DNA from: a virus
Lineage: Duplodnaviria; Heunggongvirae; Uroviricota; Caudoviricetes
Virus record (IMG/VR): IMGVR_UViG_2693429668_000006
DNA: 64,000 nucleotides
Reading direction: 5' to 3' (one strand)
Shown here piece by piece: positions 34,064 to 40,675 of the stretch (position 1 is its first letter; every line of letters starts with the position of its first letter). The notes under the pieces are model-generated. The model saw only the letters and a program-made list of their open reading frames with translations, ran no database searches and was not told the origin of the DNA. Made by a program: the position numbers and the translations under genes.

Positions 34064-37000
34064 TTAGTTACGTTGAGTGTTTGGGTTGAGTGATCCGCCA
34101 GGGCGTTTCTCTTGAGCGATAGTCTCAAGCGCGATTGCTTTCATCCGTTGAGCGGCATTGTTCCATATGCTTTCTGTATCGCCGGATTCAGTTGTGCTAC
34201 CGTCACTATGGACGTTGATCTCAATTGATACAGGAGAAAGAACATTTCCTCCTCCACTCATACCATCGGTACTGAGCGTTACAGGGATTGTTCGACCATC
34301 AGGCAATGGAACATACGCCTCATTCATAGAACCTTCCCCAAACAACGCTAATTGAGGTGAGTTAGCAATACCGCCTTTCTGGTATGCCCGGAGCGGGATC
34401 ACGCCGTCTTTTCCGAATATTCCGCCATTTGCAAACTTCGGGATTGCAGGAATGCCTTTAGTTCCGTCAGCCACACTGCTGGTTGCGGTTTTAGCAGAGC
34501 TTGATGTCACGCTGTCGAAACCACCGCCAGCCCATACTGAAACCAAACCAGATGCAACTGTCGCGCCGAAATTCAACCACTTATTACCAGAGCCGGAAGC
34601 ATTAGCTCCAAGCATTGCAAACGCGGCAGACAGAGCGCCGGTAACAGAGCTGAGGTTCTGCATCGAGAAGATGGAGTCCTTCACTGCTTTTGTCTCAGCA
34701 TCTTTGGCTTCGGTGCTATTAAATAGCCCTGATACCCAGCTACCAATCGCATTTGTTGCTGTGCCAATTGCGCTGGTGGTCTGCTGTGTCGTTTGCCCCA
34801 ATCCAGTTACCGAACTGGACGTCTCCTTCGTGGCTTCTCCTACCGACTTGTCGCCATTAACAGTGTTGCTTATGCGCACACCTTGATTGGCAACTGCGGA
34901 AGCAACCCCGGTGAGCAAATTACCACTCTGTGAACTACCAGCTGCGGTGGTTCCCATTCCCAACATGTTCATTAGAGGCAGCGTGATCTGCGACTTCACG
35001 ACCATATTGGTGATATCTTTCAAAATGGACTGAGATAGGCTGGAGAAGCTCATCTTCCCGTTAATAACGAAATCAGTCAGGACATCAGTTAAGCCACTAA
35101 ACAAATCAGTCCAGGTGCTTTCGATCTGCTCTGCCAGATTTTCGTATTCCAGTGCCAACTTCTGCGTCGCAGTCCCCGTCTCTTTAATAAGCGCGGTATT
35201 GCCAGCAGCAATCAGTTGATTGATTTTCTTTGTATAAAGCGCCACAACTTTAGGATCAGACGCCTTATCACGAAGTTCTATCAACGCTTTGAGATTGCGG
35301 TTGTAGGTGTCTTCGAAATCAGCAACTTTCTCTTCGCGAGACGGCGTATAGCCAGCACTAATAATGGAATCCGCCTCCGGTGCCCAAGTGGAGATCATCT
35401 GCTCAACATTGCGGCGATTAAACATCTCACGATATTCAGGTGTCGCATTTTTGAGGTCTTCAAGACGTTTTTTCGCCTTGTCGATCATCTCTTGAGTGAT
35501 GAACTCGTTAGGAACCGCATTAGCCAAATCTGTCAGCGATTTCGTTGTATCGCGAAGAGACTGATCAAACGATACCGTAGCCTTAGAGCTTTCACCCATT
35601 TGCCCCATAAGCTGATCGGCTTTGTCCAGAGCCTTCTGGTATCCGGCTGCCAGTTTCTGTTGCGCTGCCTGTTCCTTCTTGGCCGCACGCTGCGAGGCGT
35701 TAGCTGATCGTTGGGCTGCTTTCTCGGCAGCTGCTGCATCCTGTTCACGAGCTTTAGTAAGTGCGGCAATGGCTGCGGCACGCTCTTCATCGCTCATTTT
35801 CTCCAGAGAGCTGGCACTGGATGCTTTCTGCAAATTAAGCTGCGTCTTGAGTTGTTTAGGCCCAATAATCGGCTTACCTTCGAAGTCCATCATCGGAGTG
35901 CCGTCAGGCAAAGTACGCTGATAAGTCGCAGAATCCATCTGGTTTCGCATATATTGCGCCAACGCCTTCTGAGCAGCTTTATCAGTTGTACCTAACCCAA
36001 GAACAGTCCCCTGGTTTGACATTACGCCCTTACCAGTTTTGGCCGCGTTATCTCTCTCGAACTCTGCCTGAGTAAGTTCCTGAGCAACGGCTTCCAAATG
36101 CTCCTGATAACCACGAATACTGCCTTGCAGTTTCTGGATTTGCTCGGTATTGCCATCCTTTTTGGCTTTTTCAAGCTGATCATTAAGAGTCGCGATTTGC
36201 TTCTCGGTCGCATTCTTACGAGAAGAAAGTGAATCAACCAGTTTTTGCGCAGGCTCCAGATAGCTTTTGTTTACCGTTTCACGTAACGGTGCCAATAGCT
36301 TGTTCTTTTCGTCATCTGAAAGTGAACCGTCATCATTGATTTTCTGGATCTTATCCAGAGCCTCCTGCCGGGCTTTCACGAATGTTGCCGCGAAAATCTG
36401 GTTTTCCGCTCGAATTTTCTCAATCTGAGATTCGGCAGCCTCTTTAGCCAAACGCTTTGCTACAGCGCCGTCACCAAGAGCTATCGTGCCGGTTATCTTT
36501 TGATACTCTTCCTGATTTTTTTTCAGGCGTGCTTCGATGTCAGCCTTCGACTCTTTGTGAGTAATAACACCGGCAGAGTTAGATACGTAATTAACACCCT
36601 CACCAGTTTTTAATGCTCGTTGATCAGCAAGAATCTGCTTTTCGAGCTTTTCTGCGCGGTCGGCCATTTGTGCACGTTTGGCCGCCGTCATCGCCTCTGG
36701 TATTTTCCTAATCTCGTCAACGACCTTTGAAGTTTCGCTGCGGAGCATGGTCATGTACGTGATTAGGCCAGCAACAGCTACAGTGGCAACTGTAAATGCT
36801 GCCCCTATAGGGTTTGCTGCAATGAACGCCGTTAATCCAGCAAAAGCGCCTTTAAGCCCCGTAATCGCCCCACGGATGGCGAAAATAAGAGAGGGGATCG
36901 GAGCCAGCCCCATACGTGCCGCACGATTGAATCGGGTTACTGCTGTAGCGCCGAGGTTAAATGGAGTCTGTATGGCGGTCGCCATCGTGGCAAAGGTGCT

Positions 37001-38638
37001 AACCATCTGGCTGCCTGCGCCAACTACCCCCATGATCCCTGCTCGCATCAGTTTGAACGCAACCATCGCGGCCACGACCTTACCGAGATTAATTACCAGC
37101 TCTTGGTTCTTTGCTAACCATTGAGCAAGCTGACGCAACCCATCGATTGCCGTCGTTAACCCCGAGCCTAAAGAATTGGCAAACGAAATCCCTTCGGCGC
37201 TATTCATGATTGAAGCCAGTTCTTTCATCCCCTTCGATAGAGAATCCAGATATCCGGCCTGACCAACCCGATCAGCAAATAACGTGAATGACGTCTGAAG
37301 TTGCGCCAGCGCACCTGTGTAGGTTTGCATCATGTCTTTCGCTGCGTTCTCATTCTCCGCACGCAGACCAACAAACATCAGAGACAACGCCTGTTTTGCC
37401 TCAACCGTACCGCTGGCAACGGCTTTAGTCAGTTCCCCCATAGTGATGCCTGCGGCGTCTGCCATTGCCTGCATCGCGTTAGGAACGGCTTCACCTAATT
37501 GCTGACGTAGCTCTTCCATTGACACAACGCCCTTACCGGACATCTGCTGAACGGCCACAGCCGCACGTTTCAACAGCTCACTATCACCACCAAAACGAGC
37601 AACGGAGTCCACCAGCGCCTTCAGAGAACCATCGGTTGGATCTAAGCCAGCAGAACGAAACTTCACGAAGGAATCTGTTAACGCCTGCATCGCGAACGGC
37701 GCATTTTGCGCCATGTCTACGATGTACTTCATATCATCAGCGGCAGCCTGGCCCGGGTTGGACTTCTCCTTATTCAACCCTCGAAGCATCACCCGCATAC
37801 GTTCCATTTCGGCCGCAGCTTCAACAATAGGCTTCTGCCACCCAAACATGATGTCAGTAACCGTTCTGGCTGCATCTCCGATCTCGCCAAGCAGGAAAAT
37901 GTTGCCACGAAGGCCAGAGAATATACCTCCTTCGTTACTTTTACCGCTATGGCCAGAAGCGCCGCTACGCCGCCCGCTACCACCATCGCCACTTCCAGAT
38001 GTACGAACGCGTACCGGCTTGCTAATCAGTTGCTGACGTCCGATAACTTCGTCCATCTGCTCACGAACCTTTTTCAGTCCCTCGGCAGCCTGACTCGTTG
38101 TGACACCCCAATTACTGAGTCGCTTCGTCGTGGTATTAAGGCGCGTATTCATGCCACTCACGGACGCAGAGGCTTCTTTGGCCTCCGTACCAAAGCGGCT
38201 TGCGCTTTTGCTTGCATAGGTCGCCCAATCAGAGAAATCATTTAGCTCTGATTGCACTTTACGTAATGACGCGGTGAGTTTATCTACTGAAGAAGTTGTC
38301 GTATCGACGCGCTCAATCAGGGCTTTAAGACCAGAATTGAGGCTGGTGATGTTGCCACGCATTTTACGCGTAGCATCTGAAGCAAGCTCAAAACCGGCAG
38401 CTACATCCTGTAGTTTATCTGCCGTAGAATCGAGCTTGCTTTCCAGAACGCCAATGATACGGGCGACCGAACCCAAAGAGCGTTCAAAGGTTTGGATTTT
38501 TTGAGCAGGCTTTGTTACCTGCTCACCAAATCGAGTAAGCAGTTTCCCCGCACGATCGATTGACGCTGTAAACTGTTTGTCTTCCAGCGACAGGATAAAC
38601 TCTACGTTTTGTGACATTCCCTTGTCATCCTCTGCCAA
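34064..38638 (-). CDS. tail tape measure protein
   Basis: 1524 aa, coiled-coil and Gly/Ala-rich hydrophobic segments, position between G-T chaperones and M. Confidence 0.75.
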   Translation of the reverse strand: MAEDDKGMSQNVEFILSLEDKQFTASIDRAGKLLTRFGEQVTKPAQKIQTFERSLGSVARIIGVLESKLDSTADKLQDVAAGFELASDATRKMRGNITSLNSGLKALIERVDTTTSSVDKLTASLRKVQSELNDFSDWATYASKSASRFGTEAKEASASVSGMNTRLNTTTKRLSNWGVTTSQAAEGLKKVREQMDEVIGRQQLISKPVRVRTSGSGDGGSGRRSGASGHSGKSNEGGIFSGLRGNIFLLGEIGDAARTVTDIMFGWQKPIVEAAAEMERMRVMLRGLNKEKSNPGQAAADDMKYIVDMAQNAPFAMQALTDSFVKFRSAGLDPTDGSLKALVDSVARFGGDSELLKRAAVAVQQMSGKGVVSMEELRQQLGEAVPNAMQAMADAAGITMGELTKAVASGTVEAKQALSLMFVGLRAENENAAKDMMQTYTGALAQLQTSFTLFADRVGQAGYLDSLSKGMKELASIMNSAEGISFANSLGSGLTTAIDGLRQLAQWLAKNQELVINLGKVVAAMVAFKLMRAGIMGVVGAGSQMVSTFATMATAIQTPFNLGATAVTRFNRAARMGLAPIPSLIFAIRGAITGLKGAFAGLTAFIAANPIGAAFTVATVAVAGLITYMTMLRSETSKVVDEIRKIPEAMTAAKRAQMADRAEKLEKQILADQRALKTGEGVNYVSNSAGVITHKESKADIEARLKKNQEEYQKITGTIALGDGAVAKRLAKEAAESQIEKIRAENQIFAATFVKARQEALDKIQKINDDGSLSDDEKNKLLAPLRETVNKSYLEPAQKLVDSLSSRKNATEKQIATLNDQLEKAKKDGNTEQIQKLQGSIRGYQEHLEAVAQELTQAEFERDNAAKTGKGVMSNQGTVLGLGTTDKAAQKALAQYMRNQMDSATYQRTLPDGTPMMDFEGKPIIGPKQLKTQLNLQKASSASSLEKMSDEERAAAIAALTKAREQDAAAAEKAAQRSANASQRAAKKEQAAQQKLAAGYQKALDKADQLMGQMGESSKATVSFDQSLRDTTKSLTDLANAVPNEFITQEMIDKAKKRLEDLKNATPEYREMFNRRNVEQMISTWAPEADSIISAGYTPSREEKVADFEDTYNRNLKALIELRDKASDPKVVALYTKKINQLIAAGNTALIKETGTATQKLALEYENLAEQIESTWTDLFSGLTDVLTDFVINGKMSFSSLSQSILKDITNMVVKSQITLPLMNMLGMGTTAAGSSQSGNLLTGVASAVANQGVRISNTVNGDKSVGEATKETSSSVTGLGQTTQQTTSAIGTATNAIGSWVSGLFNSTEAKDAETKAVKDSIFSMQNLSSVTGALSAAFAMLGANASGSGNKWLNFGATVASGLVSVWAGGGFDSVTSSSAKTATSSVADGTKGIPAIPKFANGGIFGKDGVIPLRAYQKGGIANSPQLALFGEGSMNEAYVPLPDGRTIPVTLSTDGMSGGGNVLSPVSIEINVHSDGSTTESGDTESIWNNAAQRMKAIALETIAQEKRPGGSLNPNTQRN

Positions 38639-39292
38639 ATATTTGCATCAGTTGCTCTTTGGCGTCAGGGTCTGCCTTATCCTGGCTTGGATCGTAGACT
38701 TTATCTGTTACGACTGGTCTTCCAATCCTGAGTTGCAAACCCTCCATGAACGCCTTCACAGCCTCGCCATCCGCCTGGGACGCACGAGCGACTTGTAAGT
38801 TGCGGACATCCTCTTCCGCACGCAGACGGTCTATATTGCGACTGAGCATCCAGAACATCGTGAGAGGAACGTTCAGTAGCTCTAATGGCGACACGGCGTA
38901 GTGAGCAACTACACGACTGAAATAGAATCCGAGATCTATTGAGACGGTCCTTGTCCCGGATTCATCGCGGGAAATTACTTTGCCCCTTCGCCAGCCGCTT
39001 TTTCGTTTTCTTCATCAATCACTTCCATAGCGAAGGTGAAGATCTGCTGGAGTTGCGGAACAGTCAGTTTTTCAAGAACTTCGTCAGGTACTGAAGGGAT
39101 AACCTTACGAACCAGATCTGCATAAGCTGTCACTTGCTCAACAGGAGACATATTCATGAGATCTTTGCCTTCCATCTGCTTGATGGAAACGAACAGACCT
39201 ACCGTCATTTCAACGATGGGATATTCCTGACCGCCAAATTTGATGCTTTTCTTCGGAGGCAGAATGGAATCTAGATCGAGTAATTTGGTCAT
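38625..39292 (-). CDS. tail assembly chaperone G-T fusion produced by programmed -1 frameshift
   Basis: -1 frame stays open across the G stop into ORF 38625..38894; candidate slip site GCA-AAG-TAA at 38975..38983. Confidence 0.5.
38975..39292 (-). CDS. tail assembly chaperone (lambda G-like)
   Basis: 105 aa ending ...EENEKAAGEGAK; upstream of tape measure. Confidence 0.6.
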   Translation of the reverse strand: MTKLLDLDSILPPKKSIKFGGQEYPIVEMTVGLFVSIKQMEGKDLMNMSPVEQVTAYADLVRKVIPSVPDEVLEKLTVPQLQQIFTFAMEVIDEENEKAAGEGAK

Positions 39293-39347
39293 TGGTTAAA
39301 ATCCTTTTAAAAGAGAGGCCCATCCTGAGCCTCTGCTTAATTACTGA

Positions 39348-40094
39348 TTAATCTGCGGGGTTAATCGTTACTGACTTAGTTGCCTTCTTACCACCGCTAT
39401 TGCTGGTGAAGGAGATATTTGTAGAACCCTGCGCCACACCACGTACCAGACCCGTTTGATCTACCGTGGCCTTTTCCTGGTCTTCGGATTCCCAAACACC
39501 GGTTTTGTCTGCGGCATCAGCTGGAGTGATTTCGGCTGTCAGTTGCACAGTTTCTCCAGCTTTTACGGTTGGAGATTCCGGTGAGATCGACACAGTTTTT
39601 ACCGGTTTAGGACCGCTCATTTTGCCCAGAACGCCTTCATCATCCGGGTATGCGCTGAACTGAACAGAGAACACACGAACATCATCAGACTGGTAGGTCA
39701 TAGTGAAGTTGCCCGCGGTTGCCGCTTTCGGGATGGTCAACACATAGTCGGTGGTGTCCTGCGGAGTCAGAACCAGCTCCTTCGCCACATCAATCAGGTT
39801 AACGCCCTGTGCAGATGTGATCGTGACAGAGTTGTCATCTTCGCTCAGAGTAGAACCAGGCATCAGGTCAACCATGTTTTGGAGTACAGACTCAGCCAGA
39901 GGCGCGGTGATGGTAATGTTGCGCCCCTGAACTAATTCGGAAATTACGGTCTGCCCCAACTGATCGACGGTGACTTTCAGCGTTTCAGTGGCTACTTCAA
40001 CCTGAACACCACCTTTGGTGTAACCCAAATCCACACCACCAAACGACACCTTACAGGCACCAAGTTTGATGTTTTTTACATGGGTATTAGACAT
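39348..40094 (-). CDS. major tail protein (lambda V-like) with C-terminal Ig-like (Big_2-type) domain
   Basis: Position before G/T; C-terminal Ig-like segment; start set at ATG 40094 with SD AAGGAG. Confidence 0.6.
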   Translation of the reverse strand: MSNTHVKNIKLGACKVSFGGVDLGYTKGGVQVEVATETLKVTVDQLGQTVISELVQGRNITITAPLAESVLQNMVDLMPGSTLSEDDNSVTITSAQGVNLIDVAKELVLTPQDTTDYVLTIPKAATAGNFTMTYQSDDVRVFSVQFSAYPDDEGVLGKMSGPKPVKTVSISPESPTVKAGETVQLTAEITPADAADKTGVWESEDQEKATVDQTGLVRGVAQGSTNISFTSNSGGKKATKSVTINPAD

Positions 40095-40168
40095 TGATGG
40101 AAAACTCCTTTTTCCGTTAATTCTACGCATTCATTGCGCTAATAGTAAGTATATACTTACCAATTGAG

Positions 40169-40675
40169 TTAATTCAATAAATAGCCAGCAAATTCAACAG
40201 GAATGCCTGCTTCTATTAATGCCCCATCATTTTTGGGATAAATGATTGGCATCGCCATCGGTCGTACAAGTCGAAAATAAACACCACCAGATTCCGTTTC
40301 CTCTACTGGAAACATCTCAATGATTTTATTGGCTTTCTCAACCGTCGTAGTAATTGACGAACCACGCACAATGATTGTGAATGATTCGTGATAAAAGCCC
40401 TGTAGCTCATGATCGATGCTGATACCGGTATTTGGGTTAATAAGCAGGACGCCAGATTTCACATTGGCAGGCAAGTAGTGACAGAAAATATCAGTCCCGA
40501 CCGTGCCAATCTTTGCCTTCTGCATCAAACTTGCAAACGCTTCAATAAACACATTAACCTCTCGTAAAACCGGCTTTTCTGGCAGCCTCCAGAATCGCTT
40601 CTGAGAACTGCTTCTCGCTAATTTCCACCGCTCTTTCCAGAAAGTGTGGCCCAACACGAGGTTTAACACCGGCAA
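40169..40675 (-). CDS. tail terminator-like protein (lambda U position); start uncertain
   Basis: Gene order; ORF track start overlaps upstream gene by about 120 nt, internal ATG at 40525 possible. Confidence 0.4.
   Translation of the reverse strand: MPVLNLVLGHTFWKERWKLARSSSQKRFWRLPEKPVLREVNVFIEAFASLMQKAKIGTVGTDIFCHYLPANVKSGVLLINPNTGISIDHELQGFYHESFTIIVRGSSITTTVEKANKIIEMFPVEETESGGVYFRLVRPMAMPIIYPKNDGALIEAGIPVEFAGYLLN

Follow-up and report, generated by a model that had tools for sequence, protein, structure and literature searches.

The viral DNA analysed here (IMG/VR record IMGVR_UViG_2693429668_000006, Caudoviricetes; its whole length of 64,000 nucleotides (nt) is referred to as the window) is that of an SSU5-like siphovirus phage-plasmid of Escherichia coli, and it carries two small overlapping open reading frames (ORFs), G and T, between the genes for the major tail protein and the tape measure protein, as in the lambda-type arrangement. 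Judged from the sequence of the window and of its relatives, G and T very probably form a tail assembly chaperone pair, with a -1 frameshift taking place on the tetramer A_AAG, at the last codon of G. What is new is an unannotated G/GT -1 frameshift on a weakened NNA_AAG slip site set against a stop codon, while the kind of recoding itself is known. In every annotated GenBank/RefSeq record examined, G and T appear as two separate hypothetical proteins, T being N-terminally truncated.

Gene G, a putative tail assembly chaperone gene, occupies 38975..39292 on the minus strand, from ATG 39292 to TAA 38977..38975, and its 0-frame product of 105 amino acids (aa) ends in ...AAGEGAK. The 3' end of the gene reads GAA GGG GCA (38983..38981) AAG (38980..38978) TAA. 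The -1 frame is open from 39011, directly after a TGA at 39014..39012, down to the TGA at 38627..38625, spanning the stop codon of G, and the listed T ORF (38894..38625) belongs to this same -1 frame. A first reading made from the sequence only had proposed a -1 frame open across the G stop into ORF 38625..38894, which is borne out (open 39011..38628), and it had given the coordinates and sequence of the G end and of GCA-AAG-TAA correctly. Only 12 codons of the -1 frame are open ahead of the G stop in the window. As for the other frames, both close soon past G, with stops at 38938 in the 0 frame and at 38964 in the +1 frame, which rule out readthrough and a +1 frameshift, respectively. Transcriptional slippage was also ruled out, the runs of A being just 3 and 5 nt long. 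The conserved, programmed G/G-T frameshift that the same reading had expected is supported by the position of the genes, the frame of T, the lack of a conserved T start and the confinement of the shift.

The T segment comprises 117 codons of the -1 frame, from GTA 38978..38976 to GGA 38630..38628, plus the TGA 38627..38625 (38625..38978, minus strand), and is delimited by frame and conservation; the predicted GT fusion amounts to 105 + 117 = 222 aa. Its conservation was analysed in a comparative set of 103 related loci, drawn from collections of phages, viral contigs, genomes and metagenomes, with subsets of 28 distinct junction variants, 74 distinct relatives, 20 distinct 64-mers and, for the hairpin, 32 distinct sequences. 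The -1-frame peptide, which begins immediately past the G stop as VISRDESG..SIDLGFYFSRVVAHY or VISRDESG-xxT-VSIDLGFYFSRVVAHY..., is strongly conserved, and this conservation extends to relatives whose G is down to ~60% identical to that of the window. Indels in the T peptide are multiples of three only, and the length of T is constant, at ~117 codons ending at the start of the tape measure gene. Over the 33 codons that separate the G stop from the annotated T start, variable sites number 14, 5 and 26 at -1-frame codon positions 1, 2 and 3, respectively, and the pairwise ratio of synonymous to non-synonymous differences is 1773:1403 in the -1 frame vs. 438:2675 in the 0 frame of G. By these substitution patterns, the T frame is under strong purifying selection.

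T thus overlaps the end of G in the -1 frame, and it does so without a conserved start codon: in the window, no ATG, GTG or TTG was found in the T frame upstream of 38894, and the GTG at 38894 is itself replaced by GTA, GTC, GTT or ATT in relatives. The match of T to phrog_1131 spans just residues 45-128 of the open -1 frame, which indicates that the T proteins in databases are annotated too short.

The proposed -1 shift site is GCA_AAG (38978..38983, minus strand), an NNA_AAG hexamer containing the A_AAG tetramer 38981..38978, and it is singled out by its invariance and by its homologous position in remote loci. All 28 distinct junction variants read NNA_AAG_TA(A/G)_T, with GCA or GTA as the NNA codon. 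Among the 20 distinct 64-mers, neither the third base of GCA/GTA nor any base of AAG changes, whereas the second base (C/T, for Ala/Val) and most of the nearby wobble positions vary; the replacement of Ala by Val (GCA to GTA) retains the third-position A. In the structural genes of the phage, AAG accounts for 39% of the Lys codons, GCA for 30% of those for Ala and GTA for 25% of those for Val. An ending of the form NNA_AAG_stop was found in G alone among the 176 stop-terminated ORFs of at least 80 aa on both strands of the window, and within G a 0-frame A_AAG occurs once, as the final codon. The GCA_AAG_TAA motif is no chance feature.

Where the shift can fall is further delimited by a -1-frame TGA (GGT_GAA read as TGA) located 13 nt ahead of the G stop in 35 of the 74 distinct relatives, Salmonella phage SSU5 included. 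In those 35 relatives, the shift is therefore confined to the last four codons, GAA-GGG-GCA-AAG, among which AAG is both the only one able to re-pair in the -1 frame (on AAA) and the only one that is conserved. At 38983..38978 the window accordingly holds a 0-frame A_AAG that permits tRNA-Lys to re-pair on AAA. A canonical X_XXY_YYZ heptamer is lacking, the window having G_GCA_AAG and its relatives C_GUA_AAG or A_GCA_AAG, with just the A_AAG tetramer conserved. Tandem slippage on G_GCA_AAG was rejected, as the move of tRNA-Ala from GCA to GGC entails two mismatches, and as conservation is lacking at the X positions. Two possible Shine-Dalgarno-like stimulators were also set aside: GAAGGGG, 2 nt 5' of A_AAG, in place of which relatives have GAAGAA, GAAGAC or GACGAC, and a GGTGA/GGCGA further upstream, which is variable among relatives.

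Re-pairing by tRNA-Lys from AAG to AAA beside the terminator, as put forward in the sequence-only reading, is supported, A_AAG being invariant and a stop always adjoining it. That the site is non-canonical holds inasmuch as there is no X-XXY-YYZ heptamer, but its oddity had been overstated, since NNA_AAG/A_AAG sites are an established class (PMC5009743, PMC4066793). Its description as the only plausible slip site needs a similar correction: A_AAG is indeed the only conserved re-pairing site, but the open -1 stretch of the window also contains the run GAA_AAA_G (39004..38998).

Directly 3' of the slip codon lies the G stop, TAA (38975..38977, minus strand), the first two bases of which are read by the -1 frame within GUA (Val). 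A stop codon, TAA or TAG, adjoins AAG in all SSU5-group relatives and also in two remote homologues (L104 and L105, see below), and may act as a 'shifty stop' stimulator. Further downstream, 8 nt 3' of AAG, a candidate stimulatory stem-loop (38912..38969, minus strand) was recognised by its predicted fold and its conservation. It consists of a lower helix (38969..38964 with 38917..38912), an upper helix of 10 base pairs (38963..38954 with 38934..38925), a loop (38953..38935) and a 3' bulge (38924..38918). This structure is the minimum free energy or centroid fold in all 12 of the relatives folded, and 95.3% of its pair cells are standard over the 32 distinct sequences. One pair covaries (AU in 16, GC in 9 and GU in 7, never A-C), a compensatory UA-to-GC double change is present in Photorhabdus, and third-position entropy is 0.55-0.63 bits in the stems vs. 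1.32 bits in the loop. A scan of 38500..39400 against Rfam gave chance-level matches only, the stem-loop fitting no Rfam family; the element 38969..38912 is retained as a candidate stimulator.

Scans of G and T against Pfam and NCBIfam gave no match, and those against PHROGs returned phrog_893 and phrog_1131, both of unknown function, while the predicted fold of G has weak matches to tail assembly chaperones. A profile search with G retrieved 426 cluster representatives among 1.84 billion proteins. No Pfam model covers this family, and two of 43 members weakly match Phage_TAC_7. The G family proteins (P0034-P0178; loci L104-L108) are ~100-120 aa long and have in common the motif M-x-K-[LI]-L-[ND]-L-D at the N terminus and, at the C terminus, an acidic tail, which in most cases ends in GK, GN or KK. 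Of the 133 full-length remote representatives, 95 have a dipeptide GK, GN or KK within their last five residues, i.e. the dipeptides encoded by G_GGA_AAG, G_GGA_AAC and A_AAA_AAG. At the DNA level, the junction reads GAG_GGA_AAG|TAA in L104 and L105, and GAG_GGA_AAG_GAG|TAA in L108, where the heptamer is one codon ahead of the stop; in L107, G ends in ...EGN plus eight residues, with GGA_AAC in the DNA, eight codons ahead of the stop. In L104, L105, L107 and L108, a homologous T follows in the -1 frame (IDFxF...FW..S..I....AE[ED]D), and a stem-loop is found 3-10 nt past the heptamer in the remote homologues, with z-scores down to -5.7. These homologues from metagenomic phages therefore resemble the window in having homologous G and T, the -1 frame, a slip site placed at the very 3' terminus of G and a predicted stem-loop downstream of it; they differ in keeping G_GGA_AAG (or GGA_AAC), whereas the SSU5 group has GCA or GUA instead of GGA. 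The site of the window and the lambda-type heptamer are only one base apart (G_GCA_AAG vs. G_GGA_AAG), and the presence of G_GGA_AAG at the same position in the remote loci points to the SSU5-group site as a positionally homologous, degenerate derivative of the lambda-type heptamer.

From these features, we infer a scheme that covers the occurrence and the efficiency of the shift, the ribosomal site (A or P) of the slip, the parts played by the stop and the hairpin, and what T does. Most ribosomes would end at TAA 38977..38975 and yield the 105-aa chaperone, and a minority would slip by -1 with tRNA-Lys (anticodon mnm5s2UUU; E. coli has no other tRNA for Lys) on AAG 38980..38978. This tRNA pairs poorly with AAG but perfectly with the overlapping AAA 38981..38979, to which it would move. 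After the slip, reading would resume at GUA 38978..38976 and proceed through the 117 codons of the -1 frame to TGA 38627..38625, giving a 222-aa G-T fusion with the junction ...AAGEGAK-VISRDESG.... As tetramers are barely shifty alone, the adjacent stop (by slow termination, with AAG in the P site) and the stem-loop probably raise the efficiency, up to the few percent that would be expected for G:GT. On the model of lambda, binding to the tape measure protein would fall to the G part, and recruitment of the major tail protein to the T part.

Several points speak against this scheme. The hairpin of the window has no exceptional stability (z = -0.8 to -0.96), one clade lacks an intact lower helix, and the conservation of the structure is confounded by the strong amino-acid conservation. 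In E. coli, termination is efficient at a UAA with a U after it, which speaks against a long pause at the stop. Without a stimulator, A_AAG is close to background in E. coli (0.147% vs. 0.112%; PMC4066793), so that the model depends on stimulators which are themselves deduced. Finally, in the library of papers searched, no link of SSU5 or of phage-plasmids with frameshifting was found, and the GT product is a deduced one.

Other explanations of the locus were weighed. The shift could fall mainly on GAA_AAA_G (38998..39004, minus strand; A_AAA tetramer), an alternative slippery run that lies inside the open -1 stretch of the window and its closest clade and on which an AAA-to-AAA re-pairing would be perfect, producing the junction ...EENEK-SGWRRGKVISR...; this is very unlikely. 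The run was rejected as a conserved site, being replaced by GAA_GCN in 8 of the 28 junction variants and cut off from T by the -1-frame TGA in 35 of the 74 distinct relatives; it is also ~29 nt away from the hairpin, and A_AAA ranks last among the active tetramers of E. coli (PMC4066793). In the window's clade, it could make a minor contribution. Little probability attaches either to T being made as a free protein, by reinitiation past the G stop (e.g. at ATT 38975..38973) or from an internal start at GTG 38894 or ATG 38854, although databases annotate T as its own gene from GTG or ATG and phage operons commonly make use of termination-reinitiation. Past GUA, the next codon is variable (ATT, GTT, ATA or ATC) and mostly unusable as a start, GTG 38894 is not conserved, neither annotated start is preceded by a Shine-Dalgarno sequence, and the best-conserved residues of T (SIDLGFYFSRVVAHY) lie upstream of both; reinitiation would moreover leave the invariance of A_AAG and the canonical heptamers of the remote loci unexplained. 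As to the idea that there is no recoding and that the -1 ORF is a mere remnant, in decay or without function, in fortuitous overlap with G, the hypothetical status of both ORFs in annotations is in keeping with it, but it is scarcely conceivable given the strong purifying selection on the -1 frame, its in-frame indels and its constant length of ~117 codons.

The part played by the stop is more debatable. It is quite possible, if not our preference, that the stop is irrelevant, the slip taking place in the A site of NNA_AAG (GCA in the P site and AAG in the A site) under stimulation by the hairpin, and the adjacency of the stop being merely inherited. GCA and GUA are the sole 5' codons seen at the SSU5-group site, and the heptamer stands one codon ahead of the stop in L108 and eight codons ahead in L107. 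GCA and GUA are read by cmo5U34 tRNAs, which are of the wobble-prone kind, and we take them to belong to the NNA class that favours frameshifting. The published work on NNA_AAG and tetramer sites is likewise framed in a model of A-site slippage aided by wobble-prone P-site tRNAs (PMC5009743, PMC4066793). On the other hand, the stop is directly adjacent in 28 of 28 SSU5-group junction variants as well as in L104 and L105, and the independent site in the major tail protein gene of distant relatives (C_CCA_AAG followed by TAA, TAG or TGA) has the same layout; this recurrence of the AAG-stop layout suggests a contribution of the stop.

If peptidyl-tRNA-Lys slips in the P site before a release factor has acted on the stop, the GT:G ratio would depend on the release-factor activity of the host, as would that of Ig-decorated to plain tail tube subunits at the second site described below, and the junction would be a natural, functional -1 'shifty stop' that works despite the decay of the P-site half of its ancestral heptamer. 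Classical programmed 'shifty stops' (Weiss et al. 1987; prfB, +1 at CUU_UGA; reviewed in PMC5009743) similarly have a shift-prone codon directly 5' of the stop, where a delay in termination may leave the peptidyl-tRNA long enough in place to re-pair, but they are +1 cases, -1 shifts at stops being documented mainly in synthetic contexts, and at the G-T junction the role of the stop is a putative one.

Concerning the slip site itself, a -1 shift requires at the least a Z_ZZN tetramer, of which A_AAG is the studied paradigm (PMC5009743). NNA_AAG is productive in IS1222 and incidental in B. subtilis cdd, its efficiency depending on the wobble propensity of the tRNA that reads NNA, and E. coli has a single tRNA-Lys for AAA and AAG (PMC5009743). 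Among tetramers, A_AAG ranks first in E. coli, where its efficiency goes up to 5.6% when the IS3 pseudoknot is present (PMC4066793). The site of the window resembles those of IS1222 (G_CGA_AAG), B. subtilis cdd (A_CGA_AAG) and the IS3-based constructs (Sharma et al. 2014, PMC4066793) in the lone slip of tRNA-Lys from AAG to AAA, in the third base provided by the 5' NNA codon and in a low intrinsic efficiency that would need a downstream structure. It differs from them in its setting, these being insertion sequence transposases, an incidental cellular event and synthetic constructs, whereas here a phage tail chaperone fusion would be made; furthermore, AAG is here the terminal sense codon, and a simple stem-loop would take the place of the IS3 pseudoknot. 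Work by Licznar et al. in 2003 reportedly deals with such NNA_AAG / Z_ZZN -1 shift sites too.

The other model is that of lambda gpG and gpGT (Levin, Hendrix and Casjens 1993; Xu, Hendrix and Duda 2004, 2013, 2014, cited in PMC5009743), with which the window shares the placement of the ORF pair, a second ORF that is in the -1 frame and startless, a shift (here a predicted one) on an AAG codon for tRNA-Lys at the 3' terminus of G, and the expectation of a scarce fusion. Lambda, however, has the full G_GGA_AAG with tandem re-pairing in the P and A sites, whereas the window has lost the P-site half and has its slip codon right against the stop; besides, the G and T of the window have no detectable similarity to the chaperone families of Pfam and NCBIfam. 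The lambda G:GT ratio is 30:1, i.e. a few percent, and gpG and gpGT are absent from lambda virions (PMC5009743), so lysates of infected or induced cells, rather than virions, would suit a search for the fusion by mass spectrometry.

As a whole, these results leave the current understanding of frameshifting unchanged. They correct the annotation of the locus, with a predicted 222-aa GT fusion instead of two hypothetical proteins, and they put a name on a large putative chaperone family (426 cluster representatives) that lies outside Pfam. They also provide a natural example of a presumably essential recoding event kept after the decay of its heptamer to NNA_AAG beside a stop. Frameshift predictors search fixed lists of motifs (PMC10885494), and this example would be useful for training them and for testing how a stop and a hairpin compensate for a weak slip site.

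The relatives all share the gene order seen on the minus strand of the window (major tail protein, G, T and tape measure protein). The major tail protein gene (39348..40130) was assigned by its match to phrog_1280 and to major tail protein families, and it encodes a C-terminal immunoglobulin-like (Ig-like) Big_2 domain (PF02368, E 5.8e-26), which is an in-frame fusion. The tape measure protein gene (34064..38638; 1524 aa) matches phrog_1292, PF20155 TMP_3 and PF09718. The mechanical ORF start of the latter is TTG 38638, which overlaps the end of T on the minus strand; in relatives, the annotated start is the ATG equivalent to 38617, 8 nt past the T stop and preceded by GAGGA/AAGGG, and this ATG 38617 is more likely to be the start than TTG 38638.

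Over 38400..40200, the window shares 99.6% identity with Escherichia phage Cyrano, as against 86% with Salmonella phage SSU5 and ~80% with SSU5-like phages of Klebsiella, and the 721-bp G-T segment is present in 232 of 5426 complete E. coli genomes, on plasmids of ~106-114 kb. A tblastn search of the phage collection returned 12 close relatives and nothing further. Record labels of the relatives name Enterobacterales hosts (e.g. Escherichia, Salmonella, Klebsiella, Yersinia, Kluyvera, Photorhabdus and Raoultella), those of the close relatives including Salmonella, Klebsiella, Yersinia and Kluyvera. Two tail-module relatives, JAEWTL010000011.1 (L007) and DALYYK010000001.1 (L011), with G 98% and 74% identical, respectively, were deposited as metagenome-assembled genomes labelled 'Bacillota bacterium' and 'Candidatus Fimivivens sp.'; these taxon labels are probably due to binning contamination by the phage-plasmid. 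In a contig from a JGI metagenome (L099:1-4435), the tail module is split up into numerous short ORFs, with a fragmented tape measure protein, G cut to 80 aa and T ended after 42 codons, and the junction still reads GTA_AAG_TAA; this contig is probably a low-quality assembly or a decaying copy.

A second AAG-stop site was observed in the major tail protein gene of distant relatives (L094:2150-2460, L095, L096:2180-2449, L100, L101 and L102), whose ORF ends in ...C_CCA_AAG, a canonical heptamer, immediately followed by TAA, TAG or TGA. In these relatives, the Big_2 domain is encoded by an overlapping -1-frame ORF of 96-100 aa (K-V-x-V-T-G-V-T-V-S-P...), which looks like a second programmed -1 frameshift, one that would decorate a fraction of the tail tube subunits. 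In the window (39600..39625, minus strand), as in SSU5/Cyrano, the corresponding sequence is GGT CCT AAA CCG GTA AAA with the Ig domain in frame, so every subunit would carry the domain. That 'AAG + stop' is a termination-coupled -1 recoding module, used as a unit by this phage lineage, is a tentative idea which we consider rather unlikely. In one close relative (L051:2180-2270), the major tail protein is shortened (...GPKR-TGA) and the remaining Ig domain lies in another frame, probably through a deletion or an assembly error, not recoding.

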